Assembly (NCBI GenBank): GCA_040387495.1
Contig: JAZKDQ010000014.1
Coordinates: 73,752 to 117,332 of the forward strand
Reading direction: 5' to 3'
Length of the DNA stretch: 43,581 nt
From: Pseudomonadota bacterium
GTDB lineage: Bacteria; Pseudomonadota; Alphaproteobacteria; Paracaedibacterales; CAIOTO01
Below the pieces are notes generated by a model that was not told the DNA's origin, searched no databases, and saw only the letters and a program-made list of their open reading frames with translations. This document shows positions 2,358 through 30,008 of this stretch, piece by piece. The translations under genes were made by a program, and so were the position numbers. Within the stretch, counting starts at the first letter, position 1. Every line of letters begins with the position of its first letter.

Positions 2358-2506
2358 AAAAGATACTCCTGTCATAAGTGTTATAACGCTCGTTTTATAA
2401 GTCCTTTTTATCTAGTCTAAAGGATCATTGTATGCCATTCTAATTATAGTGTGTTATGAGTTAAAAACGCCTTAACACCAAAGTTCGTCAAAAACAGGTA
2501 TTTTTT
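2358..2506. promoter_or_regulatory. Probable res site and divergent promoters of the transposon
   Basis: Lies between divergent tnpA and tnpR and contains short imperfect palindromes (e.g. GTGTTATAACGC). Subsites were not mapped. Confidence 0.55.
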
Positions 2507-11899: not shown

Positions 11900-12125
11900 A
11901 AATAATTAGCTCCTGAGTCTGTTTTTCTCGATATCGTTATTCTAACCCGAAAATTATCGTTTGTCATGTTTTTCTTTTATACTAATAAAAAGAATATATT
12001 AGGTGTTTGTAGTAGTGGTGCTGTGAATAATGGGGATAACTTTGTTATTAACAGACTTATCCACATGATAACATAGGTTTAGACGGTGAGTTTACCTAAT
12101 GAGCTGGGTGGTTATCCACAGGGTG

Positions 12126-12233
12126 TGTATAAACAACCTTTCCCTGTGCATAAAAGAGGGGTTATACACAGGGGTAAAAAGTTGTTAACAGTTTGTTAAC
12201 CTTTCACGGATGTTATCCACAGGGTTATCCACA
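12126..12233 (+). repeat. Direct repeat copy A (right half of oriC)
   Basis: 108 bp, closely matched by 17127-17233. Confidence 0.92.
12185..12200 (+). promoter_or_regulatory. CtrA binding site within the oriC candidate
   Basis: TTAA-CAGTTTG-TTAAC is an exact match to the TTAA-N7-TTAAC consensus. Confidence 0.75.
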
Positions 12234-12248: not shown

Positions 12249-15200
12249 TTAATGTAACCCTTGATTTTTACCCATATCAATAACCTTTGAATCAGAAGTA
12301 ACTGGGGCAATAGCGCCAATACCTGATTTCTTTCTCATCGCCAAAAGACGTTTTAAATATGGTGTTGCTCCGTTATCTTCGTCTATATGCTTTACCAGTT
12401 GATCCAACGTTAAACCAGTAGATGTTTTAAATTCAAGTAGCTCTTGGTTTTCTTCAACGATTTTTTTCAGCAACACTTCGTGTTTAAATAACAGGATAAA
12501 TCGAGGGTATGCATCATTATCATCATCCGCCCTAGCTAACTTTGAAATATTTGCCCGGGCCAATTTTTCAACAACATTTTCGGGAAAACATTGTAAACCG
12601 AGCGCTAAGAAGTCCTTACCAGGTGCTGTGTTGTTAAAGATAGAAAGTGCTTGATCAACAATAAGTTTTGTTAAATTTGGTGAGTTTGTGTCTGCCATGC
12701 ATAATAAACTTCTCATTTGATCTGCTGTCAGTTGATTTAACACATTCGCACAACCTGCCCATTTTAATACCGCCTCTGTTGCTTTTAACTGGAAAACAGG
12801 ACCATAAGTTGTGGGCATTAGGAGTGGTGGCGTGTTGTACCCACTAGCAGTATCACGTGCTTTTAAAACAACATCGGCCCTTGCCTTTAGTTGATATGGT
12901 AGATAGTAAAATGCACCCACCTTTTTGCTGTTATTGGATGGGTTCAAGGCAGCATATCGTTGATACGCTGGATCCATGCTTTTTAGTATTTGATCAAGGA
13001 TACGCGGAATAAAAAACACATTTTCATCTTTAAAAAGATCATTTATAAATTGTTGATCGAAAAGAGAGAAATCAATCGTTTCAATTTTAGACATAAATGT
13101 CGCAGGTGTTTTTTTAAACTCTTCTGTTAGTTTGTAGGCCAACGATGCTCTTTCGTTTTTAACTGTCTGTTTTGTATCTGATATTTTAAGGCGCCCATCA
13201 AGGTTGCCGTGTAGGTGTGGAACTATTCTTGTTATATCTGAGTAACAGTCACTATCAATAGCTCTGTTTAATTGGTCTTGTAATAATGGTTGTCTTTTTA
13301 TATTTGATGCAATTTTTTTATCAATAATATTTTTGTATTTTTTTGCAACAGAAAACGGAGGTGTTGGGTAAAAATAAGAAACAGATAAAGGCATTTTTTT
13401 TATGATGCGCCATGCTTTTTCTTTTGAGTCTACAATTCTTTTTAAATTGGAATACCATGTTTGTTCTTTTGTGGATCGTTTGCGTAATATTTTTTCCGGG
13501 ATGTGATCCTCATAATATGTCAACAAATCGCTTGATGGGCAATTTTCCAAGACATTTTTAATAATCGATGCGCGATTTGTTTGCAGCGCTGTTTCTAGTT
13601 GGGAAATCCACACTTGGGCGGCATCTGCAGAAAAAGGATTTTTGTACCATAGCCAAGAATTAACACTAGAGTTAATTTTATGTTTAAAAAAAGCATAAAA
13701 TTTGGGGTTAATGTGATCTTTTAATGAGCCACCTGTCTGTTTAATGTGTTTTTCAAGATAGTTGAAGAAACCAGGGGACATGGAGCGTCCTTTTTTGAAT
13801 TCAATCAAGGCATGATTAAGCACACTTAAACCATTAGCGTTGTGAATGCTTAAAAAATCATTTTGAAATGAAAAGTCAGACTCTTGAAGATTCTGTAGAT
13901 ATGGTAGCTCAAACAAAAAAGGATTTCCGGTGTCGGGGTTTTCCGTTTGAAGGTCTAGCCCACTTTTAAAGAGATGGAGAATGTGTTGTTGCATCCATGT
14001 TTTTGTTGGATTTTCTTTTAAAAAACTAAGAAAAAGACTTGCAAATTTTGCAAGGGTTACAAGTTGGCGTTTTGTGGCTGCTTTTATGCACTCTCCCCAC
14101 TTGTCTAAAGAGCGATCAACCGACACTATGGTTTCTTTAATGTCTTCTTCTGTATAAGACCAAATAGACCTGTTTATCAGCTTAACGGCATAGTCATCGC
14201 CGGTTTTTAAAATGGTGCGCCCTATCTTTTGTTTTATCTTATCAGAGACACCAGAAAAGTCGTAATGTTTTAAAATATATCTAAACGAGGATTTAAGTTC
14301 TTCATCCACTCCCGTTGTTATTTTTGTTAATACACTTTCGATACTTAGTATGTCATTTAATTTTTTATTATTTGGATCTTTATGAATAATTTCTGTTACT
14401 ACATATTTTGTGACAGTATAGCTACCACTGGCCAATGCTGCATTACAAAGTGTTACTGGATCAATGGATTGCACCAAATCTGGACATGTTTCCACCAATG
14501 TTTTAAGGGCCTCGATATGACCAAAACGTGCCAAATGTAAGAGGCTGTGTGTGTTTGGTACATCTTCATGTGTATTTCCTGTGACGCCTTTAAAAACCAT
14601 TTTGTACAAATCGCGTGCAGCAGGGGCTTCCATTAAGCTTCCTGGGATAAGCGCTGTTCGTTGAGAAAACCAATACCCTAAGTTAGCGGCAGTTGTTTTG
14701 GAAAGTTCCTTTTCGAAACGTTTCTTTTTCTCGGGGGTGAGTGGAAAAAAATCCAAACCATGCATTTTAAGTTGAGATTCATCATCGGCAAGCGATGGGT
14801 GGAGTGATAAACGCACTTCCCCATAAAGGCCTGTTTTTTTTCTGGTTTCTTCTGTACGTGTTGAGTCGATTTTTCCATCTGCTGTTTTTGGTTCAAAGTC
14901 TTCTTTGCCTGCTTGTGCAACGCGTTCATATTCAGCTTGTGCATTTTGATAAGCAGTTAGAGCTACTTTTTCATCCATATAATCGGTCGCACCATACTCG
15001 GTCAGTGCATCAGGCTTGATAAATAGTTGCAGCAACATTGCGTTACCATAAGGTGTGCCTGTATCGGCAATAAATTGTTGAAATAACGATTCATAGGGGG
15101 CGTAGCTTAAATCCATCCCTAAAAGCGCCGTTCCCTCTTCAAATCGTTTGGAAACATTTGGATCTGCAACACTGTGATTGTTTCCCCAATATTCAACGGA

Positions 15201-16865
15201 TGAGGACGTTGATCTGGATGTTGCGCGCCCTGCAGTAAGTACAAAGTTTCCAAAAATACGACGATCGCGATTACCATTATCATAATGGCTATCACCATTT
15301 CGTGTGGCATCATCGATCATGTTTGTAAGATCACGGAAATAAAGATCGGTATAACGAAGACGTGTTAATCGATCTGTTTGACTTAAGGTTAGATGGTTAT
15401 GCAAGCTTGATGCAATACGGAATGCGTGACCATTCTCATCGTTTGTGCCGTGATAAATTGGGTAAAAACCTGTCTTTTCCCACTCCGTCCGTTCTGAATC
15501 CATTACATCGGCGAGACGCTCAATATAGCGTTCATCAATAACAAGCTCGCGTTTGAATTCGCCTTTTCCATCAGCGATTTTGTTTTTGTATTCCATGCTG
15601 TTGTATGTATAAAAGTATTTTCTTAAGTTGGTAATGTTGGCTGAACGGTGTGGACTTGCTTGGCTTGCATGCTGTGGGTCTTTGGGTTCCGCGTATTCTT
15701 TCTCTAAGACCAGCATAAGGTGCCCTTCGGTCATGGTGTATCGGCCGTGCACAGTCTCAATTTTAGGACGCAAAGAATGCACAGTAAATTTTTCTGTTTT
15801 ATCTAAAATAATAGGAGAATTAAGGGCAGCCATACGCTTTTTCTCAGCCTCTGACTTAAGTTCTATTGTCACGCGTTGACGAAAGGCCTCGGTGTACGCA
15901 AATTCTTTTTCTTCGTGTGCAGTAAACTGAACTTTTTCGTAAGCATTTGGAACAATCTTCATTTTATCAAGGTTGTGACCAAGCTTCTTTAGTTTTTTAA
16001 TGAGTTTGAGTTCTTCTTTGGCCTCAGCTGCATTATTGTTCGCTCTCTTCTGCGCCCTTGCAGCTATTGCCAGAGAGTTGTGTGCCAAATTATCCCGTGG
16101 GGAAACTTTACCATTATCATGATTTGTGTAATCTTCTTCCCTTACGTAACTTGCCTTTTGCGGCGCGCCTAATGGAATAGGCCGCTTACCTTGCGCTAAT
16201 TGTTCTAACATATGCCGATAAAACGGCGTTGATAGCATGTCGTACAGTGGTCCATAAAGTGTAACCTCTTCAAGGTCGTCTGTTTTAACGTTTACTTTTC
16301 CGTTTTTAACCGCACCTAATAAATCTTCTACATTAAATGTTTTAAAGCGCCTGTATTCTTTGCTGTGTCCATCGGTGGCATCGGCAAGTTTTTTGTCAAA
16401 TCTTTCCGCTGAAACATATTTAGTTTCATAAAAATACATACGATACAGTTGGGATTTTTCAGCCAAATACAAATCCGCAAAAGGTGCCCGTAACAAAAGA
16501 TGTGGGTGCGTAGCGAATATGTTAAATGATTCTTCGGCAGCTTCACGGCCCGCTGTTACATGAAGTGTTCCATCATCTGGATCTGATTTGCCACCAAAGT
16601 TACAAAAACCATCATCATCATCGCGCTGTCCCAGGATAACCTTGTAATTATTATGCTTGTCGCGCATATAATACAACACGCCAGCGGCTGTATGCTGTGC
16701 ATCAGCCTTAAAAAATCTGGTTGTTTGTTGTGGCTTGGTTCCGGTCGTTGATACGAAAGATTCAACCTCGGTGAATTCTTTTAATACAGCATAAGCAGAG
16801 GTGCACACGGCTTGATTGAAAACGCACGTCAGCAATAAGGAAGAAGTAAATTTCTTAAGGTTCAT
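12249..16865 (-). CDS. Large secreted multidomain effector-like protein: NUDIX hydrolase, putative ART-like region, ankyrin-like/helical repeats
   Basis: Signal peptide (…TSAYA); Nudix box GGKSDPDDGTLHVTAGREAAEESF at aa ~91-114; YHGT at aa ~471; ankyrin-like LLHLARFGHIEALKTLVE and NANGLSVLNHAL. Confidence 0.85.
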   Translation of the reverse strand: MNLKKFTSSLLLTCVFNQAVCTSAYAVLKEFTEVESFVSTTGTKPQQTTRFFKADAQHTAAGVLYYMRDKHNNYKVILGQRDDDDGFCNFGGKSDPDDGTLHVTAGREAAEESFNIFATHPHLLLRAPFADLYLAEKSQLYRMYFYETKYVSAERFDKKLADATDGHSKEYRRFKTFNVEDLLGAVKNGKVNVKTDDLEEVTLYGPLYDMLSTPFYRHMLEQLAQGKRPIPLGAPQKASYVREEDYTNHDNGKVSPRDNLAHNSLAIAARAQKRANNNAAEAKEELKLIKKLKKLGHNLDKMKIVPNAYEKVQFTAHEEKEFAYTEAFRQRVTIELKSEAEKKRMAALNSPIILDKTEKFTVHSLRPKIETVHGRYTMTEGHLMLVLEKEYAEPKDPQHASQASPHRSANITNLRKYFYTYNSMEYKNKIADGKGEFKRELVIDERYIERLADVMDSERTEWEKTGFYPIYHGTNDENGHAFRIASSLHNHLTLSQTDRLTRLRYTDLYFRDLTNMIDDATRNGDSHYDNGNRDRRIFGNFVLTAGRATSRSTSSSVEYWGNNHSVADPNVSKRFEEGTALLGMDLSYAPYESLFQQFIADTGTPYGNAMLLQLFIKPDALTEYGATDYMDEKVALTAYQNAQAEYERVAQAGKEDFEPKTADGKIDSTRTEETRKKTGLYGEVRLSLHPSLADDESQLKMHGLDFFPLTPEKKKRFEKELSKTTAANLGYWFSQRTALIPGSLMEAPAARDLYKMVFKGVTGNTHEDVPNTHSLLHLARFGHIEALKTLVETCPDLVQSIDPVTLCNAALASGSYTVTKYVVTEIIHKDPNNKKLNDILSIESVLTKITTGVDEELKSSFRYILKHYDFSGVSDKIKQKIGRTILKTGDDYAVKLINRSIWSYTEEDIKETIVSVDRSLDKWGECIKAATKRQLVTLAKFASLFLSFLKENPTKTWMQQHILHLFKSGLDLQTENPDTGNPFLFELPYLQNLQESDFSFQNDFLSIHNANGLSVLNHALIEFKKGRSMSPGFFNYLEKHIKQTGGSLKDHINPKFYAFFKHKINSSVNSWLWYKNPFSADAAQVWISQLETALQTNRASIIKNVLENCPSSDLLTYYEDHIPEKILRKRSTKEQTWYSNLKRIVDSKEKAWRIIKKMPLSVSYFYPTPPFSVAKKYKNIIDKKIASNIKRQPLLQDQLNRAIDSDCYSDITRIVPHLHGNLDGRLKISDTKQTVKNERASLAYKLTEEFKKTPATFMSKIETIDFSLFDQQFINDLFKDENVFFIPRILDQILKSMDPAYQRYAALNPSNNSKKVGAFYYLPYQLKARADVVLKARDTASGYNTPPLLMPTTYGPVFQLKATEAVLKWAGCANVLNQLTADQMRSLLCMADTNSPNLTKLIVDQALSIFNNTAPGKDFLALGLQCFPENVVEKLARANISKLARADDDNDAYPRFILLFKHEVLLKKIVEENQELLEFKTSTGLTLDQLVKHIDEDNGATPYLKRLLAMRKKSGIGAIAPVTSDSKVIDMGKNQGLH

Positions 16866-17126: not shown

Positions 17127-17233
17127 TGTATAAACAACATTTCCCTGTGCATAAAAGGGGGGTTATACACAGGGGTAAAAAGTTGTTAACAGTTGTTAAT
17201 CTTTTACACACACTATCCACAGGGTTATTCACA
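17127..17233 (+). repeat. Direct repeat copy B (decayed copy of the oriC right half)
   Basis: The first ~65 bp are nearly identical to copy A. The CtrA spacer is shortened to N6 and the two terminal boxes are changed to CTATCCACA and TTATTCACA. Confidence 0.92.
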
Positions 17234-17255
17234 AAGCTGGCGCCGTGCTTTGATG

Positions 17256-18554
17256 TTATATAGTCGCATGTTGGCTAAATAAAAGGTTACCTGCTGTGAA
17301 TAAGTATGACATTAAACTATTATCCACCTTCTTCTTCTCCTTGGCTTTTGGTGATCCCTGCCAACCAGGAGAAGTTGTCTCTGTAACAACCCAATTATCT
17401 TGATTATCGTTAACCTCGTTTTCACCATTCTCATCTTTTTGTTTATAACAAGCCGAATCGGGAGATGAGCATGCTGATACGCTTTCTATGTTGACGTCGG
17501 GGCTTGTTAGTTTTGGTTTGGTCGAAGTGTTCTCTGTTTGATTGTTCGATAAAGAAATCGATTCAAAATCTTCATCATCATCTTCTTTGTCGCTATTATC
17601 CCCATCACTTTCCTCCTCTTGTTCTCTATCAAGGAAGCCTGCTGTTGAGCTGGATTCATCAGATACAGACCCCGTTGAGGAGGTTGGTTTATTGTTGTCA
17701 TCAAGATCTTCTGGTGTTGTGTGGGAAGAATCAAAGCTCGCTTCATCACAATTAATGGTGTTAAAATACCCATCTCCTAAACTCACATCTTTCTTTACTC
17801 TACTTTGTGTATCAAGCCTTGGAGTTGAATATCGAGGAGAGTGGAGTGTAGAAGCTCGTTTCTTTGGTGTGGTGAAGTCGCTATCCGGTTCGTTTTTTGA
17901 TAGCTGAAGAGGGCTGCGCTGGTTGACTTTTTTTGCGATTGCCGTGTTTACAATCTGCTCATTTAAGGTTTTTTTGGCAAACACAGTATTATCAAGAATG
18001 TTAATTGCTTGTCGTTTAGTAAGACCATCGTTGTGTTCAGAAAGAGCCTCGTTAAACCAAAGAGAAAACATATCTTGTGTGATTTGGCCAAATTCATCAA
18101 GTTCTTTGTGGTCGTTCCACTGATTCGATAACAATTCACGATCAATGGTTTTATTGCCATCTTTGTCTAATAACCCCCTTGCTAATTTATCCGAAAGCGC
18201 CTCTGTTTGTTCTAGAATTTTAAAATGTTTATAATTTTTGTCTTTTTTATCCAGTTTCTTAAACGATAACCTGTATTGTTCTGGGTTTTTATGAACAAAA
18301 AATTTGGCCATAGTTGTTTTAATGATCAATTTTTTTTGATCAAATGTTGCCTGAACATTTGAAACTTTGTCGTAATCGGAAAGTAATTTATTAGAATTTT
18401 CAGTGTGTTGAGCAAATAATTCTTCTCTGTTTGGGTTCGCGTTAAATTTTCCACGGCGATATTTGTTTTCATCCTCAAGATATTCACATGAAAAGCTTTG
18501 CATCGAAATAAAAAATGTAAAAAGTATGCTTTTGCAATAAGATCTGACTTTCAT
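17256..18554 (-). CDS. Secreted hypothetical protein; member 2 of the shared-N-domain family, with an acidic disordered C-terminal half
   Basis: Signal peptide (…MQSFS), shared N-domain, and a D/E/S-rich tail. The ATG at 18554 follows a GAGG RBS. Confidence 0.8.
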   Translation of the reverse strand: MKVRSYCKSILFTFFISMQSFSCEYLEDENKYRRGKFNANPNREELFAQHTENSNKLLSDYDKVSNVQATFDQKKLIIKTTMAKFFVHKNPEQYRLSFKKLDKKDKNYKHFKILEQTEALSDKLARGLLDKDGNKTIDRELLSNQWNDHKELDEFGQITQDMFSLWFNEALSEHNDGLTKRQAINILDNTVFAKKTLNEQIVNTAIAKKVNQRSPLQLSKNEPDSDFTTPKKRASTLHSPRYSTPRLDTQSRVKKDVSLGDGYFNTINCDEASFDSSHTTPEDLDDNNKPTSSTGSVSDESSSTAGFLDREQEEESDGDNSDKEDDDEDFESISLSNNQTENTSTKPKLTSPDVNIESVSACSSPDSACYKQKDENGENEVNDNQDNWVVTETTSPGWQGSPKAKEKKKVDNSLMSYLFTAGNLLFSQHATI

Positions 18555-20409: not shown

Positions 20410-21912
20410 ATGGCTCCAATGAATCAAGCTAAAAAAGACGCCAAATTCACGCACTTGCGTGCAACATTTTGGCCCAGCCATTCACATGAAATAAAGAAAT
20501 TTGTTTCGCTATCGTTGATCATGTTTGGGCTTCTCTTTATCTACACCATTGCGCGCGATACAAAAGATACGCTCGTCATTAATGCCGTTGGTGTGCATAT
20601 TATCCCTTTTTTGCAAGGGGCAGCGCTGACAATAGCTGGGTTTTTGTTTGTTCTGGTGTACGCAAAACTGTCTAATATGTTTTCGCGTGAGAAATTGTTC
20701 TACATTATTATCACGCCTTTTTTGTTCTATTACGCCTTTTTTGGGTTTGTGATTCATCCTAACAACGAGTGGTTCCACCCTGCAAAAGAAACCATCGCTG
20801 CACTGAATGCCTCATTCCCCGCTCTGTCGGGTTTTATTGATATATATGCGTGCTGGTCGTATTCACTGTTTTATATTCTAACCGAAATATGGGGCAATGC
20901 GATGATCGGCCTCATGTTTTGGGAATTTGCAAACCATATTGTTCTTCTTGATGAATCAAAGCGATTTTATGGATTGTTTGCCGTTATTGCCAATGTTGCA
21001 TTGATTATATCGGGTTATTTTGTGTATTTTTGCTCGAACACGATTCAGTCTTTCTTACCGCAGGGAAAAGACGCATGGACAATCTCGATGTATCTTTTGA
21101 TGGGCAGTATTCTTTTGATGGGTGTTTTTGTTATTAGCGTTTTTCGTTGGATGCACATTCATATATTACATAACGGTGACGCGGATGGCTTCTCCGTAGA
21201 AAAAGTTAAAGCACAGCCATCCCAGAAAAAATCACTTCTCCAAAGTGCCTGGGTTGTTGTGACTTCACATGAGATTTTGTTGATTCTTATCCTTGTCTTG
21301 TCCTATTCCATTGCGGTTAACGTGCTCGAAATGCAGTGGAAGCATCAGCTCAATCTATTTTGCCAGGGTAATAGTGGAATCTATAACGGATACATGGGGT
21401 TGTATTCGTCTATCACAGGTGTTTTTACGATTCTTTGTGGCGTGTTCATTAGTGCGCGCTTGCTGCACAGTGGCACGTGGTTTCGAGCGGCGATCATTAC
21501 GCCGGCACTATTTTTAATCATCGGTGGATTGTATTTCATTCATATAGTTAATCCAAACTTGATTGGGTTTATTTTAAGTAAGTTTTCTGTGTCGCCGCTT
21601 GCATTTGCTGCAGCGGCAGGTGGAGTGGTTGTTCTTATTTTAAAATCAATGAAATACACATTGTTTGACCCCACAAAAGAAATGGCTTATATCCCATTGA
21701 GTGAAGAGCTGCGCACAAAAGGAAAAGCGGCTGTTGATGTGCTGGGCAGCAATTTAGGCGAATCCGGTAGTGGGTATATTCACATTATTTTGTTTAGCGT
21801 GATGGTAACGAAAGATGTGCTGATTATTGCACCGTATGCATGCGCGATTTTTCTGGCTGTGTGCTTGGTGTGGCTAATGGCCGTTAAAGTTATGGCAGAT
21901 AAGATTGCGTGA
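20410..21912 (+). CDS. NTT/TLC-family nucleotide transporter (ATP/ADP translocase family)
   Basis: YTIARDTKD, FWEFAN, KRFYGLF, KYTLFDPTKEMAYIPL and KGKAAVDV motifs; about 12 TM segments. Confidence 0.93.
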   Translation: MAPMNQAKKDAKFTHLRATFWPSHSHEIKKFVSLSLIMFGLLFIYTIARDTKDTLVINAVGVHIIPFLQGAALTIAGFLFVLVYAKLSNMFSREKLFYIIITPFLFYYAFFGFVIHPNNEWFHPAKETIAALNASFPALSGFIDIYACWSYSLFYILTEIWGNAMIGLMFWEFANHIVLLDESKRFYGLFAVIANVALIISGYFVYFCSNTIQSFLPQGKDAWTISMYLLMGSILLMGVFVISVFRWMHIHILHNGDADGFSVEKVKAQPSQKKSLLQSAWVVVTSHEILLILILVLSYSIAVNVLEMQWKHQLNLFCQGNSGIYNGYMGLYSSITGVFTILCGVFISARLLHSGTWFRAAIITPALFLIIGGLYFIHIVNPNLIGFILSKFSVSPLAFAAAAGGVVVLILKSMKYTLFDPTKEMAYIPLSEELRTKGKAAVDVLGSNLGESGSGYIHIILFSVMVTKDVLIIAPYACAIFLAVCLVWLMAVKVMADKIA

Positions 21913-21946
21913 ATAGAGAAGTGCTTCTTATAGCAATATTTAATCA

Positions 21947-21975
21947 TTGACATTTTGTCGCCCATAGGATACACT
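21947..21975 (+). promoter_or_regulatory. Sigma70 promoter of the TA operon, overlapping an imperfect palindromic operator
   Basis: TTGACA-N17-TACACT, with TGTCGCCCATAGGATACA overlapping the spacer and -10. Confidence 0.7.
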
Positions 21976-22009
21976 TTAAGGATCACCTACACTAGACATG
22001 TCAACTTGC

Positions 22010-22339
22010 ATGAATACAAAAAAAGTTCTTATTTACAAAGATATTACAGGCAAAGAGCCTTTTGTAAATTGGCTAGAAACACAAGATAAAATTTCTCAAA
22101 TACGCATTAGAAAGCGAATTGCGCGTATTGAAATCGGTAATTTGGGTGATTACAAGGCGATTGATTCTGGCGTCTTTGAACTAAGGTTTTTCTTTGGATC
22201 AGGCTATCGTGTATATTTTGGAATGCTTGGTGACACCGCTGTTATTTTATTGTGTGGCGGCGATAAATCAAGTCAAGAACAAGACATAAAAAAAGCAATT
22301 TCTTATTGGAAAGAGGTTCAAAATGAGATCATTTCATGA
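22010..22339 (+). CDS. Type II toxin, RelE/ParE (addiction module killer) family
   Basis: GKEPFVNWL…GNLGDYK…GVFELRFFFGSGYRVYF…LLCGGDKSSQEQDI. Confidence 0.92.
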   Translation: MNTKKVLIYKDITGKEPFVNWLETQDKISQIRIRKRIARIEIGNLGDYKAIDSGVFELRFFFGSGYRVYFGMLGDTAVILLCGGDKSSQEQDIKKAISYWKEVQNEIIS

Positions 22340-22643
22340 ATATAACATTGAAAAATTAAAAAATTCTGAAGATGCATGCCTTTATTTGACAGACGCTTTG
22401 CTTGATTTTGAGGTTGATCATGATGTGCATGCTTTTTTGAAAGCGCTGAAAGATGTGACTGATGCACAAGGTGGTATAGGTGAGCTTGCAAAAAGAACAA
22501 ACCTCAACCGTCAAAATCTGTACAAAATTCTTTCTGCAAAACGCCAACCAAAGATCGAAACATTGGGAACAATTTTAGATGGATTAGGGTTTCAGCTAAG
22601 TATTACCCCCAAAAATAGTACAATTCCAGAACAGCATGTTTAA
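22323..22643 (+). CDS. Type II antitoxin (addiction module antidote, HTH)
   Basis: YLxxAL…FLKALKDV…GGIGELAKRTNLNRQNLYKILS…PKIETL; overlaps the toxin gene. Confidence 0.92.
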   Translation: MRSFHEYNIEKLKNSEDACLYLTDALLDFEVDHDVHAFLKALKDVTDAQGGIGELAKRTNLNRQNLYKILSAKRQPKIETLGTILDGLGFQLSITPKNSTIPEQHV

Positions 22644-22789
22644 TTACCCTCCCCGATCCCTTATTCTGGTATGAGAGGACTTCCCAACATCAAGAAGAAT
22701 TAGATCGTGCAACTGATGCAATGCATAATGTGATTAAAAATAATGGTGAGTGGATACCAAGCTAGGTATCTCTTAAAAATTTGAATTGT

Positions 22790-22867
22790 TATGCATGCGC
22801 GATTTTTCTGGCTGTGTGCTTGGTGTGGCTAATGGCCGTTAAAGTTATGGCAGATAAGATTGCGTGA
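22790..22867 (+). repeat. Exact 78-bp copy of the ntt 3' end (21835-21912), including the stop codon
   Basis: Base-by-base identity. Confidence 0.96.
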
Positions 22868-23053
22868 GACGAAAGGGGGACACTTCGGACTTAAAAAAGT
22901 TTTTCTCCTGTCTAATTCTTAAATTTATTATTTCTTCCCTCATTCTAATTGCGGCTATTATTTAATCAAAATTTTTCAGAGGATCAATCAGGATTGCGGA
23001 GATAACCTAATACGTATAGCATTTATTTAACTAATTACGCGGAGTTCTTGATA

Positions 23054-23791
23054 ATGTATATTATTTTTGTTGCATTAGGTGTAGCGGTCGCTATGTTTCT
23101 TGTTGAACTTATATGCCCTGCACGACAGTGGAAAATAGTTAGGCATTGGTGGCTACGCGCAATCATTTTTAACAGCATTCAGATTGCTATCGTTTATTTA
23201 GCAACACTAACGTGGGATCTTTGGTTTTCTGGAAATCATGTATGGGAATCAAAAAAGTATCTAGGGGATGGGGCGTCTATATTTGTTGGATATATACTCA
23301 TTACATTTATTTATTATTGGTGGCATAGAATGCGACATGATGTTTATTTTTTGTGGAGGTGGTGTCATCAATTGCACCATAGCCCACAACGAATTGAAAT
23401 TCTGACAGCGTTTTATAAGCATCCGATAGAGCTTATCGTGAATGGTTTTCTATCAAGTTTAATTTTATACGTATTCCTTGGGTTAGAACCTTCAGCAGTA
23501 TCCCAGGTTATTTTGATAACAGGAATTGCTGAATTATTTTATCACTGGAACATCAAAACGCCTTATTGGTTGGGCTTCATTTTTCAACGTCCAGAAAGTC
23601 ATTGTATACATCATCAATATCAGCATCATAAAAATAATTACTCAGATTTGCCGCTTTGGGATATATTATTTGGAACTTTTCAAAATCCTAGAGAGAGTGA
23701 ATTTATGTGTGGCTTTGATGACAGTAAAGAGCAAGCTGTTATACCTATGTTGAAAGGAAAAGATTTATACAAAAGAAAGCAGCGCAAATGA
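23054..23791 (+). CDS. Sterol desaturase / fatty-acid hydroxylase family protein
   Basis: His boxes YWWHRMRH, HQLHHS, FYH and HCIHH, plus NYSDLPLWDILFGT. Confidence 0.9.
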   Translation: MYIIFVALGVAVAMFLVELICPARQWKIVRHWWLRAIIFNSIQIAIVYLATLTWDLWFSGNHVWESKKYLGDGASIFVGYILITFIYYWWHRMRHDVYFLWRWCHQLHHSPQRIEILTAFYKHPIELIVNGFLSSLILYVFLGLEPSAVSQVILITGIAELFYHWNIKTPYWLGFIFQRPESHCIHHQYQHHKNNYSDLPLWDILFGTFQNPRESEFMCGFDDSKEQAVIPMLKGKDLYKRKQRK

Positions 23792-24291
23792 ACTTTCAAG
23801 ATAAAATCACATTTATATTCTTATGTTCAATTGGTATAATGCAATTAAGTGGAGACTTATTAAATGTGCCTCTATTAAAAGCATTAGGCGCCGCAACTGG
23901 AGCATCCCCTGCGCCAAAAGTATTTACAGCACAAAATGGTTTTGAAACATATACTTCTACTTTTTATATATCTTGGTCTGATCAGAAGAAACAACAGCAG
24001 ACGTTGGAATTAAGTCCAAAAATATATAAAGGCATTAAAGGACCTTATAATAGGCGGAATGCTTACGGTGCAATTATTTCGTATGCACCTGTTTTGTATG
24101 CAAATTCAAAAACAAAGGACATGTTTTTAGGTGCCTTGCACTATTCTTTTTGTGGAAAAACTACCGTTCTTGGAGAACTTGGCATTTGCCCGGATAAAGA
24201 CGCTCTCATAACATTGCATCTTAGTCCAAAACAAAAGCTTCCAGATAATCATACGTGGAAATTGCAATATGAGGTAAAATGTCATGCATAA
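23788..24291 (+). CDS. Hypothetical membrane-anchored protein, translationally coupled in the operon
   Basis: ATGA overlap with the desaturase; N-terminal TM; ASPAPKVF and GPYNRRNAYG motifs. Confidence 0.8.
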   Translation: MNFQDKITFIFLCSIGIMQLSGDLLNVPLLKALGAATGASPAPKVFTAQNGFETYTSTFYISWSDQKKQQQTLELSPKIYKGIKGPYNRRNAYGAIISYAPVLYANSKTKDMFLGALHYSFCGKTTVLGELGICPDKDALITLHLSPKQKLPDNHTWKLQYEVKCHA

Positions 24292-25498
24292 CAAATGGAC
24301 AAGCAATCAATATAATGTTTTTAGAGTTCTCTTTGGTGTATATCTTATCGTTCATTTTTCTTATTTAATACCTTGGAGCAGTGAATTATTTTCAGATATT
24401 GGCATGATATCACATAGACAAGATAGCCCATTATTATATTGTTTCCCAAATATTTTGGCGTGTATAGATAGCCCTTTATTTGTAATTTTTTTTATAATTC
24501 TTGCTTGTCTATCTGCTATTTGTTTTGTGTGTGGTTATAATGATAAATATGCAGCTTTATATATGTGGTATGTTCTGGCATGTCTTTTTGGACGCAACCC
24601 CCTTATTGCAAATCCAAGCCTGCCTTATGTAGGGTGGATGTTATTAGCACATTTATTTATACCAAAAACACCTAAAAATAGTATCGATAGTGCTATTGCG
24701 TGGAAAATGCCAACCTCTGTTCATTTGGCGAGTTGGGTAGTTCTTGCTGTATCTTATAGCTATAGCGGGTATACAAAATTACTTAGCCCAAGTTGGTTAG
24801 AAGGAAAAAACCTTTTATATGTACTTTACAATCCCTTAGCGAGAGATTATTTCTTAAGAGATTTCTTCTTACGGATACCCTCCATTTTTCTGAGCTTGAT
24901 CACGTGGGGAATATTAATCATAGAATTACTTTTTGCATTTCTGATTTTAAAGAAAAGGGTGCGCCCATACATGTGGCTTTCTATGTTGATTGTTCAGTTT
25001 GGTTTTGCATTTTTACTAAGTTTTCCTGATTTAACCATAGCAATGCTTTTGTTTCATTTATTCACCTTTGATCCAGCATGGCTGGAATCAAAAGCAGCGG
25101 CAAATTCTGGTATATTATTTTATGATGGTGATTGTGGTCTATGTCATGGCGTTGTCCGGTTTTTATTGGCCGAGGATCATCGTCAAATATTTCAGATGTC
25201 TCCTTTGCAAGGTGAGAAATTCAAAACAATATTAGAACCGGGAAAGCAGGTGACGATGAAAGATAGCGTTGTGTTGGTTATTAAAGATAGAGCTTTAACA
25301 CGTTCGACGGCCATTGTTTATTTATTGAAAAATTTAGGGGGTTTATGGACAATTTTGGGATATATCCTTTTCTTTTTCCCTAAATTCATAAGAGACTTTG
25401 GCTATGATTGTGTAGGCACTATTCGTCATTGTTTATTCCCAAAACCATCTGGATTTTGCCCTATACTGCCAGAATCATTGAGAGGTAGATTGTTATAA
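24284..25498 (+). CDS. HTTM-like membrane domain fused to a DCC1-like (DUF393) thiol-disulfide oxidoreductase
   Basis: FRVLFG…, RNPLI, YSYSGYTKL…W and IELLF in a multi-TM N-terminal part; C-terminal LFYDGDCGLC…PLQG…RDFGYD. Confidence 0.8.
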   Translation: MHNKWTSNQYNVFRVLFGVYLIVHFSYLIPWSSELFSDIGMISHRQDSPLLYCFPNILACIDSPLFVIFFIILACLSAICFVCGYNDKYAALYMWYVLACLFGRNPLIANPSLPYVGWMLLAHLFIPKTPKNSIDSAIAWKMPTSVHLASWVVLAVSYSYSGYTKLLSPSWLEGKNLLYVLYNPLARDYFLRDFFLRIPSIFLSLITWGILIIELLFAFLILKKRVRPYMWLSMLIVQFGFAFLLSFPDLTIAMLLFHLFTFDPAWLESKAAANSGILFYDGDCGLCHGVVRFLLAEDHRQIFQMSPLQGEKFKTILEPGKQVTMKDSVVLVIKDRALTRSTAIVYLLKNLGGLWTILGYILFFFPKFIRDFGYDCVGTIRHCLFPKPSGFCPILPESLRGRLL

Positions 25499-25505
25499 CA
25501 AAGAG

Positions 25506-25700
25506 AAAGGAAAAGCGGCTGTTGATGTGCTGGGCAGCAATTTAGGCGAATCGGGTAATGGGTATATTCACATTATTTTGTTTAGCGTGATGGTAACGAA
25601 AGATGTGCTGATTATTGCACCGTATGCATGCGCGATTTTTCTGGCTGTTTGCTTGGTGTGGCTAATGGCCGTTAAAGTTATGGCGCGAAAGATTGTATAG
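25506..25700 (+). repeat. 195-bp diverged copy of the ntt 3' end (21718-21912)
   Basis: Colinear, with few substitutions until the last codons. Encodes …VMARKIV* versus …VMADKIA*, with the stop at the same position. Confidence 0.96.
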
Positions 25701-25850
25701 TAATGATTCAGATGTTTTTGGGGATCTAACGCCGAATGACATTGGTTTTTCCAATTCCAATTTTTTATACTTGATTTATTATCACGTCATGCACATATAA
25801 GAATAGTAATAAGAAATATGCTTTTAATTTTCACATCAAAGGGATACACA

Positions 25851-26918
25851 ATGTTTACAAAACTTGTAATATTGACGACACTTTCATTGGTTTCAATCGT
25901 TACTGCAATGACGCCAGAGGACATAGAAAATAATTCGAATCAGTTAGTTGTTGTTGCTGCAGGTGCGGCGATAGAGCAAGTCGGGCAGGCCGCTGAAGAA
26001 CACGCTGCAGCTATAGGGCAGATTTTGACGGCAACACCTGCTGCAACTCGTGTCTATAAAGAGCCCCACCTTTGGAGTGAAATAAGATCATATTTGGGAA
26101 TGAATTACAGCTGCCCAAGTGATGCGCGCATAAGCAAATTGTTGGCTTTAAATGAATCAGACAGACACAAAGCGTTTATTTTTTCGGCGTCTATTTTTTC
26201 GCCGTATCTAAAGATTAATGATTTTTCAATTTTATCAAATGCACATTTAATAGCATTAAGTACCAATACTTTTTTTGATACTGTTGATATAGATATGCCA
26301 TACATAAACCCAAATAATTTGGCTGATGGATTAGCAACATTAAAAACCTCTCTTCTTCCACGCAAAGTAACCATATCTTCTGAGAGCTTTCAAACAATTA
26401 GGTGGACTCGGACTTTTGAAACGATTAATGGAAAAAGAGTTAACACAAGAACCAGTGATTTTGTTCAAATTACACCTGAACGTCCTTCACATTCATGTGG
26501 TATGAGAATCAGGGGTGGAGAGCTAGATGGAAATGCTGTGTGGATAGAGGAGCCTGAATGTGGTCGTGATATTTGTGTTAATCAAATAGATATTTTTAGT
26601 AAATTGCAGGTGTGTGCAAATATAAAAAAAACAGAGCTTAAGTCATTCTGGGAAAAGGAAACTGATCATTTTTCTTCGATTCGTGATTTAATCCTTATGC
26701 CACAAACAGAATATAAATTTTTCAAAATAACTAATGAATTTTCCAAAATTGACTTATCAGCAATACTCTTAACACTCCCAACTCTGGCACTCGAATCATC
26801 AAGCATTGAACCTTCTTATGCAAGAATCGAAACAACGTCGATTCCAGTTGAGTCTAGTGCTGGAGAAATTTATCTGAAACTAACAACAAAGTTCTCTGTG
26901 TTTTCGTTAAAGAAATAA
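25851..26918 (+). CDS. Secreted hypothetical protein
   Basis: Signal peptide MFTKLVILTTLSLVSIVTA; no recognised domain. Confidence 0.75.
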   Translation: MFTKLVILTTLSLVSIVTAMTPEDIENNSNQLVVVAAGAAIEQVGQAAEEHAAAIGQILTATPAATRVYKEPHLWSEIRSYLGMNYSCPSDARISKLLALNESDRHKAFIFSASIFSPYLKINDFSILSNAHLIALSTNTFFDTVDIDMPYINPNNLADGLATLKTSLLPRKVTISSESFQTIRWTRTFETINGKRVNTRTSDFVQITPERPSHSCGMRIRGGELDGNAVWIEEPECGRDICVNQIDIFSKLQVCANIKKTELKSFWEKETDHFSSIRDLILMPQTEYKFFKITNEFSKIDLSAILLTLPTLALESSSIEPSYARIETTSIPVESSAGEIYLKLTTKFSVFSLKK

Positions 26919-27340
26919 GATAAGTGAGCGGTGTATTTTTTTAATGTAACAAATTATTAGGGGGGGCGTGCAGTATGCCATCGGATCATGCTCCCTCTCA
27001 TTTTCATGCTATATACGGTGATACGAAGTGCTTATAAATAACAAACTTTGAAGTTATTAAGGGGTTTTTGCCTCGCCAAGCCCTTGTTCTTGTGTTAGAA
27101 AGGGCTACCAACATCGAGAATAAATGCTCTAAATTTTCAGGTCAATCACACGCCACTGGCATAAGAAAATAGCGTACATATTCTTATATGTGATAGAAAA
27201 GTACATATAAGCCTTAGCCATCTCTTTATACCTTTCAAAAATAGCCATAGGAAATACCCAAAATTAATGCTAAAGTCTATCCAAATGGGATGGCAGAAAC
27301 TAAGCATTTCCCTACCTATCCAACAAAAAGGATCATGACC

Positions 27341-27838
27341 ATGACAATTCAAGTAGGCCAAAAAATTCCAAATGTTTGTTTGAAAATCGTAAATTCTGAC
27401 GGCGTTAAAGAAGTCAGTACACTCGAATTATTCAATGGCAAAAAAAGTATTGTATTTGGGCTTCCTGGCGCGTTTACGCCTGTTTGCTCTGCACGCCACG
27501 TGCCTGAGTTTGCTGCAAACAAAGACGTTCTTCAAAAAGCCGGTGTTGATCAAATCGTTTGTCTATCTGTTAACGATGCGTTCGTTATGAAAGCATGGGC
27601 TGACCAATTAAACGTAACTGATTCCGTGATTATGTTATGTGATGGTAATGGTAGCTTAACTGAAGCGCTCGGCATGACGCTTGACCTTTCAGCGCATGGC
27701 CTTGGAGTACGTTCCAAACGTTATGCGATGATTGTTGATGACTGTGTTGTAAAACATCTTGGAATAGAAGATACCCCCGAAACATGTTCTGTGTCATCAG
27801 CAGAATATTTTGTAAATCTGCTTTCAAAAGCAGTATAA
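27341..27838 (+). CDS. Peroxiredoxin (Prx5/AhpC-TSA redoxin family)
   Basis: FGLPGAFTPVCSARHVP, SVNDAFVMKAW and RSKRYAM motifs. Confidence 0.93.
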   Translation: MTIQVGQKIPNVCLKIVNSDGVKEVSTLELFNGKKSIVFGLPGAFTPVCSARHVPEFAANKDVLQKAGVDQIVCLSVNDAFVMKAWADQLNVTDSVIMLCDGNGSLTEALGMTLDLSAHGLGVRSKRYAMIVDDCVVKHLGIEDTPETCSVSSAEYFVNLLSKAV

Positions 27839-27945
27839 ATCCATTAATGCTCTTCGTTTGGTACGGATTGTTCTTGATTTTAAGAAAAGAGAATATAGAC
27901 GAATGAAGAGCACCAAGTACCTTAACCTTTATAAAAGTATCACAC

Positions 27946-28812
27946 ATGCCTCTTTCAATTCAAAATCAAGATCATTCACGTGAGGATTCGTTACCTAATA
28001 CATTGTTAGCGCCTGGGGATCTTAAAATTGGAGAGCAATATCATCTTTCAGAGTTGAGACACGATAAATACACACACGACTTTGGTTATTTGGACCGAGT
28101 TTTAGAAAACGAACAATTTGCCTTGTTTGAGCAACGTCAATGGAATTTAGATCTTTGCACGCCCATGGGCACAGAAATATTGCTTCGCGTACCAAATGTA
28201 AATGACACTCAGCTTTATTTATCGACAGCCTATTGGATTGAATTCGCTGAATCAACCAAAAAGCTTGAAGACTTATCGTATAAAATTTTATCAAAGCTCC
28301 TTAGGAATGCACATTTGTTAAACCCCTTGCATGCGCCTTATTATGTGAATATGCCGCCGCCAGTTGTGTCTGTTGAGCTTGTTAATTATCTTAAGACATT
28401 AATTGATAAAGCGGGACTACCCTATAATTTCATCGGCATTGAATTGACCGAGCGTCAACCCATTATTGACCCGATACAATTTAAGCATGGCATCAATGCA
28501 CTGCAGTTGCTAAAAATACCGGTTGCCCTTGATGATTACGGACGCGGGTATGCAACGATGCAATTCTTGCGTGATATGTATGTTGATCGCGTTAAGATTG
28601 ATCGCGGGTTGTTACATGACGCTAAAGTTAATTTATCAAAACGCTTAACACTGGTGTCGTTGCTTGATTTTGCGACTGAATTTGGTATCGAAGTTATCGC
28701 CGAAGGTGTTGAAATTGAAAGTGATTACGATTTTGTATGTCAGCTTGAGTGTGATGGGTTGCAAGGATTTTATGTTGATTCGCCCCAAATGCTGATTCCT
28801 GTTGAGGCGTAA
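27946..28812 (+). CDS. Stand-alone EAL-domain protein (c-di-GMP phosphodiesterase-like)
   Basis: EILLR, YVN, IELTE, DDYGRG, KID, EGVE and QG motifs. Confidence 0.88.
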   Translation: MPLSIQNQDHSREDSLPNTLLAPGDLKIGEQYHLSELRHDKYTHDFGYLDRVLENEQFALFEQRQWNLDLCTPMGTEILLRVPNVNDTQLYLSTAYWIEFAESTKKLEDLSYKILSKLLRNAHLLNPLHAPYYVNMPPPVVSVELVNYLKTLIDKAGLPYNFIGIELTERQPIIDPIQFKHGINALQLLKIPVALDDYGRGYATMQFLRDMYVDRVKIDRGLLHDAKVNLSKRLTLVSLLDFATEFGIEVIAEGVEIESDYDFVCQLECDGLQGFYVDSPQMLIPVEA

Positions 28813-28936
28813 CGTATTTTGTTAGCGTGAGGTGAAAATTCACTAAAAATACACCTAAAAAATACATAAAATACAATCTATTTGTTAATAAATTCATGCT
28901 ATGCTCTCATCAAAGAAGTGTATTAAGAGGATTTTT

Positions 28937-29941
28937 ATGAGTTTCACATCTATATCAAACTCTCTGAATTTTGGTCGGCGCAGCCCCAAGCAACCTCAGC
29001 TGCGTTCAGATACTTCCATAGGCCCACTTTCTGAATCTTCAAGCACTTACTGTTCAAAACTTATAAAAACAAGTATGCGTTTTTCTTTAACTGCTTTGTT
29101 GCTTGAAATGCCACCATATTATGTATCGCAGGCGAATGCAGATGATGAAAAAGGTTCTTCAGTTGTTCAGGTAGGTGCACGTAATACACGCAATAAAGAT
29201 TTCCAACACATACTAAATAATTCTCATTTCGCCCTATTTGCACAGGAACAACGATACGTAAATAATGGACTTTTAGGCAAGGTTGATCGATCTGCGGGAA
29301 CAGAGCTGCTTATTCGTATCCCCAATGCACTGGAAAAAGGTAAATACCTCAATACCGAAGAATTTATTATCCACGTTGCCAGCATGGGGCAGCTTGACGC
29401 GTTGACAACAAAAATTATTGAAAAAGTCATTCGCAGTGTGGCGTTATTGGATAGAGCAAACGCACCTTATTATATCAATGTTCCGCCGCCATTGATCTCG
29501 CCTATATTTGCTAAAGAACTCGCGTTGAAATTAGCTGAAGCTGGACTCTCAACTAAATTGATCGGTATTGAACTAACAGAACGTGAAACGATTTTGGATC
29601 GCGCAGCTTTTAATGCAGGCATGACAGAACTTAAGCGAATGGGTATTCCACTTGCGCTTGATGATTATGGGCGTGGCAATTCAACGCAAGAATTTCTAAT
29701 TGGTTTACCAGTTGAGCGCATTAAAATTGATCGCGGTGCGTTTTGTGATGCGCAAAAAGATTCAAAACTGGCAGAAAAACTGTCTTCAGAAATAGAACTT
29801 ATGCAAAAATCAGGCATGGAAGTGATCGTAGAGGGCATTGAAACCACTGACGATTGCACGTTTGCACTTAATTTAGGGTGCGATGGGATGCAGGGTTATT
29901 TTTTTGATTTCCCCAAAATGCTGATTCCTGTTGACGCGTAA
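28937..29941 (+). CDS. EAL-domain protein with an N-terminal extension
   Basis: ELLIR, YIN, IELTE, DDYGRG, KID, EGIE and QGY motifs. Confidence 0.88.
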   Translation: MSFTSISNSLNFGRRSPKQPQLRSDTSIGPLSESSSTYCSKLIKTSMRFSLTALLLEMPPYYVSQANADDEKGSSVVQVGARNTRNKDFQHILNNSHFALFAQEQRYVNNGLLGKVDRSAGTELLIRIPNALEKGKYLNTEEFIIHVASMGQLDALTTKIIEKVIRSVALLDRANAPYYINVPPPLISPIFAKELALKLAEAGLSTKLIGIELTERETILDRAAFNAGMTELKRMGIPLALDDYGRGNSTQEFLIGLPVERIKIDRGAFCDAQKDSKLAEKLSSEIELMQKSGMEVIVEGIETTDDCTFALNLGCDGMQGYFFDFPKMLIPVDA

Positions 29942-30008
29942 GCCTGGGCTTACTAAGAATAGTAAGAGAATTGATGAGCAATACACGATAAGAAGCAAAA
30001 TTTTCATT

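Follow-up and report, generated by a model that had tools for sequence, protein, structure and literature searches.

Insertion-duplication of non-replicating circles (Campbell-type integration) is a standard laboratory method in which one crossover duplicates the cloned fragment around the insert, and a fragment that reaches the stop codon leaves the target gene intact. Repeats of gene 3' ends also separate cargo in cis-mobilizable elements, in tandem accretion at one att site and in partial-tRNA arrays of the tycheposon type, some of which are without an integrase. In rhs arrays, dissociated 3' fragments, with core pieces that vary in length, are strung out behind an intact gene (Jackson et al. 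2009, PMC2935791, in the part of the account drawn on here); the model given there invokes a small episomal circle that carries a core fragment together with new downstream DNA, and a single homologous crossover that silences the old tip downstream. The e14 element at icd, according to the part of PMC13626634 concerned with that locus, brings a substitute 3' end while the original is kept as the icdC pseudogene, with mainly synonymous differences between the two. The H47 genomic island of E. coli is described in an excerpt of PMC5426353 as small, flanked by direct repeats and mobile without a site-specific recombinase of its own, host functions being inferred. Here we describe a comparable layout behind ntt, a nucleotide transporter gene, in a 43,581-nt stretch of DNA (the window; contig C14:73752-117332) from a member of the alphaproteobacterial order Paracaedibacterales, whose genome assembly comprises 1.66 Mb in 20 contigs and is rated 99.9% complete. 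On balance, we favour the reading that the DNA between ntt and the downstream gene prx is a stack of insertions formed by displacement of the 3' end of ntt, with the topology of Campbell integration and probably by the homologous recombination of the host.

We searched the whole genome for the 3' end of ntt and found it in three places only (E 3.5e-98, 3.9e-86 and 1.2e-34), values that exclude chance. We denote the end of the intact gene as c1, and the two downstream copies as c2 and c3 (Table 1). The final 78 nt of c1 (21835-21912) match c2 exactly, whereas c1 and c3 have a longer, diverged block in common: the repeat search paired 21718-21907 with 25506-25695 (190 nt, 96% identity), and when the comparison is carried to the stop codon 11 of 195 positions differ, eight of them within the last 16 nt (94% identity). 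Three residues are changed as a result, so that the protein ends in ADKIA in c1 and in ARKIV in c3. The open reading frame (ORF) 25527-25700 within c3 gives a match (E 5e-6) to the C-terminal part, positions 439-489 of 491, of the profile for TLC ATP/ADP transporters. The right edges of c2 and c3 both lie at the stop codon, while their left edges differ. An earlier reading of the window, made from the sequence alone, had placed an exact and a diverged repeat at these positions and had described the intervening content as a toxin-antitoxin (TA) pair, a desaturase/HTTM-DCC operon and a secreted ORF, and our analysis agrees with it on all of these points. No fourth copy was found ahead of prx, either by searches with the spacers or by alignment.

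We then asked whether the DNA between ntt and prx is extra. In a relative of the same genus (G003), a gap of about 85 nt separates ntt from prx, and an EAL gene, an outer membrane protein gene, nlpA and the gene for DAHP synthase come next; from prx onward, this is the order of the window from 27290 on. In the metagenome contig L031, whose ntt is 82% identical and which was the sole short contig with ntt in a metagenome scan, ntt likewise directly adjoins prx. These two sequences are 90% identical in the ntt end and were counted as one lineage; three other relatives (G001, G014 and G004) have different neighbours downstream of ntt. Given the adjacency of ntt and prx in G003 and L031, the approximately 5.3 kb that separates the genes here is extra, as the sequence-only reading had supposed in calling the cargo inserted. 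About 65 nt of the G003/L031 spacer align to 27225-27289, and the sequence after c3 does not align to it.

The protein ends of the relatives suggest which copy is the older resident. Ntt ends in SRKIR in G003, ARKIA in G001, SRKIL in G014, SRKIQ... in L031 and ARRMPPLD in G004, so that arginine stands at the position in question in 5/5 relatives and in c3, while c1 and c2 have aspartate. With its Arg-Lys-Ile end like that of the relatives, c3 has the appearance of the displaced original, and the present end of the gene appears to have been imported. Judged by these residues, c3 is probably the original chromosomal ntt end, and the proposal that the displaced end was left behind as a scar is borne out to this extent. 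The exact copy, c2, is the gene end displaced by the unit that lies directly behind ntt. Identity to the resident end drops with distance, from 100% in c2 to 94% in c3, a gradient of two points only, which fits insertion beside the gene with older relics moved outward.

The sequence-only reading had also suggested searching the genome against itself for copies of the 3' ends of core genes. We took direct pairs on the same contig with a spacing of 250-12000 nt, a length of 40 nt or more and an identity of 75% or more. Of the 69 pairs so obtained, ten, at nine loci, consist of the 3' end of a long ORF and a downstream fragment. Two more, both at one locus, are the corresponding case for 5' ends, and the other 57 are paralogues, internal repeats or unclassified. 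The nine loci are ntt and eight further housekeeping genes: an SDF transporter gene, mutL, pmbA, an ettA-like gene, pgk, a parE-like gene, gap and typA (matched in Pfam by SDF, MutL, PmbA/TldD, ABC-F, PGK, GyrB/ParE-type, GAPDH and TypA families, respectively). At each of these eight, an intact gene is followed by 0.65-2 kb of cargo and then by a 3' relic of 47-585 nt. The cargo includes two Sel1-repeat proteins, an AdoMet decarboxylase, an AAA_14/DUF4143 ATPase and several family-less ORFs with hydrophobic N-termini; the gap locus is without a clear ORF, and at three loci the cargo gene lies on the opposite strand. Taken together with those at ntt, all units measure 0.65-2.8 kb and mostly hold one gene each. 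The layout is spread over seven contigs. A crude control scan of 491 kb of unrelated loci returned two 3'-type and three 5'-type candidates, so the raw count from such a scan is by itself no evidence. Of the two 3'-type control candidates, one arose from a GC-rich palindromic repeat overlain by a spurious antisense ORF, and the second is an IS200-like transposase. The sole 5'-type locus in the genome itself lies beyond the window (C14:20151-23743), where two further copies of the 5' end of a 395-aa ORF lie upstream of the ORF, one of 173 nt (91%) and one of 63 nt (79%).

Empty sites are also found at other loci. We compared relatives at typA, mutL and ettA. The typA gene directly adjoins its 881-aa neighbour gene in 3/3 relatives (G003, G001 and G002), and mutL directly adjoins its 369-aa neighbour gene in G003 and G002, so that the site is empty in two of four relatives. 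The relative G001 has a scar of its own at this gene: its mutL is followed by a Sel1 gene (~40% identical) and by a mutL relic that is 83% identical to its own gene, ends at the stop codon and has a different left edge, being 121-125 nt long, compared with 176-180 nt in the window genome. The same relative has neither the ettA cargo nor the relic. A query with the C-terminal part of MutL against 62 genomes of the order found second copies in the window genome and in G001, along with two unclear cases (G041 and G061).

We reasoned that the positions at which a resident end and its relic differ should tell how the two diverged. Counted by codon position (1/2/3), the differences are 3/3/31 for SDF (5 of 106 residues differ), 7/2/38 for ettA (5 of 170 residues), 5/2/23 for pmbA, 1/2/11 for gap, 4/1/8 for mutL, 5/1/16 for the mutL of G001, 1/4/6 for ntt (of 11 differences), 1/2/1 for pgk and 6/2/3 for parE. 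Third positions dominate the pooled count of 33/19/137 (of 189). We compared these counts with a model in which one copy is under purifying selection and the other drifts neutrally, with assumed shares of 28/27/45%, which are rough. Against this model, SDF gives p=1e-5 and ettA p=3e-6, and the first four loci (SDF, ettA, mutL and ntt), pooled at 15/10/83, give p=2e-10. In the ettA repeat, the non-coding part differs at 18 of 75 bases, above the 47 of 510 in the coding part. The pmbA and gap relics contain one in-frame stop each, from which we conclude that they are now decaying. Differences that fall mainly on third positions imply that the copies diverged as working alleles, and hence that the incoming DNA brought its own gene end. 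On this pattern, we read resident end and relic as two alleles that evolved in separate genomes and were then joined; that the incoming DNA carried its own gene end, as the sequence-only reading had it, is very likely.

Polarizing the changes at SDF and ettA assigns 48 derived changes to the resident copies and 24 to the relics, about a twofold difference, and agreement with outgroups is more frequent for the relic than for the resident copy. We looked along the repeats for a switch in outgroup resemblance, which would be a candidate crossover point, and saw no clear one. Distances to relatives identified no donor: resident end and relic are nearest each other.

The edges of the repeats are asymmetric. 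In 8/10 pairs, and in G001, similarity ends 0-3 nt past the stop codon; at typA it extends 46 nt further, through a terminator-like hairpin, and at ettA about 75 nt further. The left edges fall at a different place in each gene and have no common motif, with only 2-9 identical bases ahead of the first mismatch, although later mutation could blur a core. A repeat search, of which an attC covariance model was not part, found no inverted repeats at unit boundaries; at ntt, these boundaries are direct copies of the ntt coding sequence. A one-off accident would not so often give cargo that starts flush with a stop codon, and we thus read the gene end as a part of the moving unit that would be long-standing and selected.

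We next considered which recombinases are at hand. A six-frame PF00589 search of the genome gave one match, a 458-aa Xer-like protein adjoining mreB on another contig than the window (C15:68668-70044; L028:727-2103), for which Xer families were the best but weak matches; there was no PF00589 match in the window. The sole PF00239 match in the genome is the Tn3 resolvase at the start of the window. Searching by tblastn with an integrase from a G003 island and six recombinases of G001-G003 brought up nothing further, and none of the ten units contains an integrase or a detectable remnant of one. No partial tRNA copies were found, with 37 tRNA/tmRNA genes in the genome. In the order, PF00589 matches at E<=1e-5 are common: 61 of 62 genomes have at least one, and most have several. 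Among the matches listed (150 of 282 in the order), none lies downstream of an ntt orthologue, and one Xer-size match lies upstream of an ntt paralogue in G024. The genome encodes recA, comEC and dprA, which shows machinery only. As a separate observation, G001 and G002 have ordinary XerC/D-type proteins of about 310 aa, to which the window genome has no counterpart; a single Xer recombinase is described for Legionellales in the part consulted of a preprint (bioRxiv 10.1101/2021.09.12.459815).

The closest relative of the cargo directly behind ntt gives a different picture. Within the order, the nearest relative of the TA unit is in G003, with 73% DNA identity from 21945 on, promoter region included. 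There, the TA homologue stands immediately after a 384-aa P4-type integrase (Arm-DNA-bind_3 and Phage_integrase domains) in a 10.5-kb island (L041; G003:C12, 8616-19193) that is bounded by 54-nt copies of the 3' half of tRNA-Arg and that carries the integrase, the TA homologue and a DUF3987 protein. In this genus, integrase islands are thus among the carriers of such TA pairs, and an integrase-linked origin of the TA cargo is plausible. The unit in the window, unlike its G003 homologue, has no integrase and is bounded by ntt ends. Five TA homologues in relatives were also examined, and none has gene-end repeats in its flanks.

The following course of events would account for these data. Cargo joined to the final part of ntt, and trimmed at the stop codon, would recombine once with the resident gene; the incoming end would complete the gene, and the previous end would be shunted downstream as a silent relic. 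A first event would have brought a three-gene, putatively lipid-modifying operon with a 195-nt end and left c3; a later one would have brought the TA pair with a 78-nt end and left c2. The same process would have left the relics at the eight other housekeeping genes, with cargo that is mostly single genes for secreted or Sel1-repeat proteins. The engine would be the homologous recombination of the host, with a circular intermediate as its substrate, in line with the proposal for C-terminal displacement in rhs; with no island-type integrase in the units or in the genome, this engine appears the most likely. The circular intermediate, the dependence on RecA, the order of events and the origin of stop-flush cargo are all parts of this scheme that we infer. 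The absence of an integrase from the genome, the nine targets, the absence of tRNA scars and the lack of a clear core at the left edges all speak for homologous recombination. In addition, the two units differ in their left edges and yet c1 and c2 agree at all 78 positions, which is natural if the ntt piece of the TA unit was copied from a chromosome that already had the new end. We are moderately confident that insertion took place without a site-specific recombinase. The sequence-only reading had called the array integrase-free: this holds for the units, and for a genome with one Xer-like protein and a Tn3 resolvase, but is weakened by the integrase beside the TA homologue in G003.

Of the systems described above, rhs C-terminal displacement and e14 at icd come closest to the present one. 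The rhs system is alike in having an intact gene followed by dissociated 3' fragments and homologous pieces of variable length (here 78 and 195 nt at ntt, and 47-585 nt elsewhere), and in a model that, as set out in the available part of its description, involves no integrase. It differs in that its cargo is a variable C-terminal toxin tip with an immunity gene, of the polymorphic-toxin family, whereas here housekeeping genes are affected, their ends are nearly alike (0-3 residues at ntt) and the cargo bears no relation to them (TA, lipid operon, Sel1). With e14 and phage 21 at icd, our loci have in common direct repeats of the 3' end of the target gene with an element-borne substitute end. 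However, e14 is a prophage of 15 kb that encodes a site-specific integrase and is excised upon SOS induction, as presented in the part of its description consulted, while the units here are of 0.65-2.8 kb, without a recombinase, in a genome without island integrases. Cis-mobilizable and tycheposon-type elements use the integrase of a related element and a fixed core, neither of which was found here. The repeats of H47 are short and are not gene ends, and its excision, in the portion of its description used here, is RecA-independent. Campbell-type integration is a laboratory procedure, and keyword searches of the literature gave no case in which it recurs naturally at many housekeeping genes. 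Integrons resemble the ntt locus in that small cargo units are stacked in one orientation, one of them a self-promoted TA pair. The term integron-like, used in the sequence-only reading, is nonetheless overstated: we found no IntI, attI, attC or common promoter and no shared recombination site, the repeats are coding sequence of the neighbouring gene, and the orientation of cargo varies at the other loci.

An extended form of this scheme, which we put forward tentatively as a possibility, is a recombinase-free cassette system in which packages labelled with the last codons of a housekeeping gene, trimmed to the stop codon, are carried from one related genome to another by host homologous recombination. 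In such a system, packages may stack behind the gene and leave a fossil record of its former ends. If this were true, the stop-codon boundary in 8/10 pairs and the two mutL packages in two species would mean that the labels are long-lived, selected components of the packages and not flanks acquired by accident.

Several observations weigh against 3'-end displacement by homologous recombination. The outermost cargo at ntt lacks a flanking repeat. The codon-position signal is absent at ntt itself, where the numbers are too small. At SDF and ettA, resident end and relic are 9-12% divergent, with identical runs of 30-44 nt, and make a poor RecA substrate. The stop-flush start in 8/10 pairs is unexplained by a one-off homologous event, and the TA homologue in G003 stands beside a P4-type integrase. 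No circle or empty-site variant was seen in the assembled contigs (contigs, not reads), and in an assembly of 20 contigs an integrase could sit in a gap. Finally, mostly synonymous divergence and a stop-codon boundary would also fit a substitute end borne by an integrase element. Since the substitute end of e14 has the same look, these two features support the claim that the incoming DNA brought its own end, and not the claim that no integrase was involved. For a similar reason, the argument of the sequence-only reading that variable repeat length speaks against a site-specific recombinase does not stand alone, as e14 has an element-specific substitute icd end (PMC13626634, in the part cited above).

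These points lead to the alternative that the units are eroded or integrase-less satellites of site-specific elements, whose attP carried the substitute end and whose integrases were deleted or act in trans. We consider this rather unlikely. It would account for blocks of identity whose left edges are specific to the element and which reach to the stop codon in 8/10 pairs, for mostly synonymous differences such as those reported for icd/icdC in the same part of PMC13626634, for the integrase next to the TA homologue in the tRNA-Arg island of G003, for the prevalence of integrases in the order, and for resident copies with about twice the derived changes of their relics. It requires, however, that nine targets were served by several specificities, all since lost, in a genome that has a single Xer-like tyrosine recombinase and no integrase or remnant in ten units. 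Partial tRNA copies, the commonest scar of such elements, are absent; the 2-9 identical bases at the left edges form no clear core; the units are small and mostly single-gene; and two units with unlike left edges have an identical 78-nt end.

A second alternative is that the gene ends were duplicated in situ, by template switching or a staggered break, and that the resident copy was then overwritten by the allele of another strain. Two facts from the assembly bear on this and on the final alternative. The first concerns the contigs, which came from three runs of one study; the likely source run contains the same reads as the window. Independently assembled contigs span every junction (21883-22819, 22838-25535 and 25655-30000) at a depth of 10-14, and the k=31 graph is unable to order units across the exact 78-nt repeat, so that the contig graph equally fits ntt joined through the 78-nt repeat to the lipid operon together with a free TA circle. 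A joint in a second sample (X2; 22789 to 21835) fits both 78-nt copies and is hence uninformative on circles. The TA unit is only thinly covered in X2, and the third run (X3) contributes next to nothing. The second fact is a contig from X2 over prx (27407-27653), which has 21 differences in 247 nt (~91% identity), spaced like third codon positions; a diverged related strain or species thus co-occurs in the same habitat. Duplication in situ would gain from such co-occurring relatives, from c1 and c2 being identical, as right after a duplication, and from the closer match of relics to outgroups. It nevertheless demands two independent events at each of several loci, recombination tracts that stop ahead of the cargo, and a break at the stop codon in 8/10 pairs, for which there is no known process; moreover, the SDF and ettA relics are nearly without first- and second-position changes, which leaves little neutral time. 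We regard it as improbable. That strain variants were stitched into false repeats is very improbable: the genome is metagenome-derived, a related strain is present and short-read graphs cannot order units across the 78-nt repeat, yet cargo-to-mid-ntt junctions stand in independently built contigs at even depth, no inter-strain path would create such a join, and the same layout recurs on seven contigs and in G001.

Table 1. Features of the window at and around the ntt locus (positions in window coordinates).
Feature	Position	Strand	Description
Tn3-family transposase and resolvase	3-3157		DDE_Tnp_Tn3 + DUF4158; runs off the window; resolvase at 2507-3157
ntt	20410-21912	+	Intact nucleotide (ATP/ADP-type) transporter gene, 500 aa; PF03219 TLC, 456 bits
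c1, resident ntt 3' end	21718-21912	+	195-nt block in common with c3; ends ...ADKIA*
Unit 1	21913-22789	+	877 nt; begins directly 3' of the ntt stop codon; TA pair
Unit 1 promoter-like site	21947-21975	+	TTGACA-17-TACACT; consensus match only
Unit 1 toxin	21998-22339	+	RelE/ParE family; TIGR02683, 108 bits (cut-off 62.85)
Unit 1 antidote	22323-22643	+	HI1420-type; PF21716, 48 bits (cut-off 27)
c2	22790-22867	+	78-nt copy of ntt end, 100% identical; ends at TGA
Unit 2	22868-25505	+	2638 nt; three-gene operon
Unit 2 fatty-acid-hydroxylase-family gene	23048-23791	+	PF04116, 102 bits
Unit 2 167-aa ORF	23788-24291	+	Second gene of operon
Unit 2 404-aa membrane protein	24284-25498	+	C-terminal DCC1 thiol-disulfide oxidoreductase domain; PF04134, 64 bits
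c3	25506-25700	+	195-nt copy of ntt end, 11 differences, still open; ends ...ARKIV*
Unit 3	25701-27224 (right edge approximate)	+	Starts at the c3 stop codon; no ntt copy at far end
Unit 3 ORF	25818-26918	+	366 aa; hydrophobic N-terminus; no Pfam or NCBIfam match
Surviving ancestral ntt-prx intergenic segment	27225-27289	+	Directly upstream of prx
prx	27290-27838	+	PF08534 Redoxin

The features of the locus are collected in Table 1. Against TIGR00769, the ntt product scores 379 bits, slightly below the cut-off of 387, and its orthologues in G003 and G001 are 84% identical. The genome also encodes two tandem ntt paralogues elsewhere (C8:53036-56167), 54% and 48% identical to the ntt of the window, the second with an in-frame TAA. 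The antidote of unit 1 scores 44.9 bits against TIGR02684, under the cut-off of 53.7, and its gene overlaps that of the toxin at 22323-22339; by family matches and adjacent, overlapping genes, the pair is a predicted type II toxin-antitoxin system. Promoter-like sites in the region are no more frequent than in shuffled sequence (19 vs 23.4). Unit 1 ends in 146 nt without matches between the antidote gene and c2. Within these, a 38-codon open stretch that ends in a stop (22646-22764) matched nothing else in the genome or in any fetched locus and may be the last part of a gene since lost.

Unit 2 belongs to a conserved operon that consists of a fatty-acid-hydroxylase-family gene, an ORF of about 165 aa and a DCC1 membrane protein of about 412 aa. 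The trio is kept in order in 44/50 loci from diverse bacteria (L073-L122), at 42-58% identity, and none of the 50 loci has an ntt fragment. These loci came from an alignment-based scan; a first contig scan with the single DCC protein had found no close match. The DCC protein is one of a large family whose members are ~412 aa long; its top non-self identity is 60%, and it is found in 0/61 other genomes of the order at E<=1e-10. The hydroxylase resembles OlsE only distantly. The ORF of unit 3 likewise occurs in 0/61 other genomes of the order, and unit 3 replaces at most ~16 nt of the old ntt-prx spacer. As no fourth ntt copy bounds its far end, unit 3 is not a cassette of the same kind, and in this respect the sequence-only reading, which had counted the secreted ORF into the array, does not hold. 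The spacers 21913-21997, 22644-22789, 22868-23047, 25701-25817 and 26919-27289 have no match elsewhere in the genome or in the fetched loci.

Other parts of the window also contain repeats. Behind prx, two tandem EAL-domain genes (27946-29941) stand where G003 has one. The G003 gene matches them at 73% (first) and 42% (second), and the two window genes have a 64-nt 3' stretch in common (83%). Far upstream of ntt, 12022-12233 contains ten matches to TTATCCACA (DnaA box, at most one mismatch), four of them perfect, and the window as a whole has 40 such matches where 13.3 are expected. A 108-nt, 90% identical partial copy of this cluster lies at 17127-17233 (cluster region 17127-17328). The two copies flank a 1538-aa ORF without a family match (12249-16865, minus strand), and the cumulative GC skew has its minimum near 8-12 kb of the window. 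The cluster is possibly oriC, part of which would have been duplicated around an inserted gene.

In keyword searches of open-access literature, the precedents that came up were rhs, e14 and H47; no publication described 3'-end displacement recurring at housekeeping genes as a means of acquiring genes, although searches of this kind do not prove that none exists. Small genomes of the intracellular type are thought to gain genes rarely, and chiefly via integrase-bearing islands. Here, nine housekeeping genes are scarred alike in a 1.66-Mb genome without island integrases, and among their cargo are secreted proteins and Sel1-repeat proteins, types that serve in interaction with host cells. The comparison of gene ends within a genome and the codon-position test can be applied to any genome, and the relics, which keep older alleles, are usable for dating and ordering acquisitions and for tracing donors. 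If host recombination alone suffices, 3'-end displacement would be a simple and general route by which such bacteria acquire accessory genes and stack them beside essential ones.

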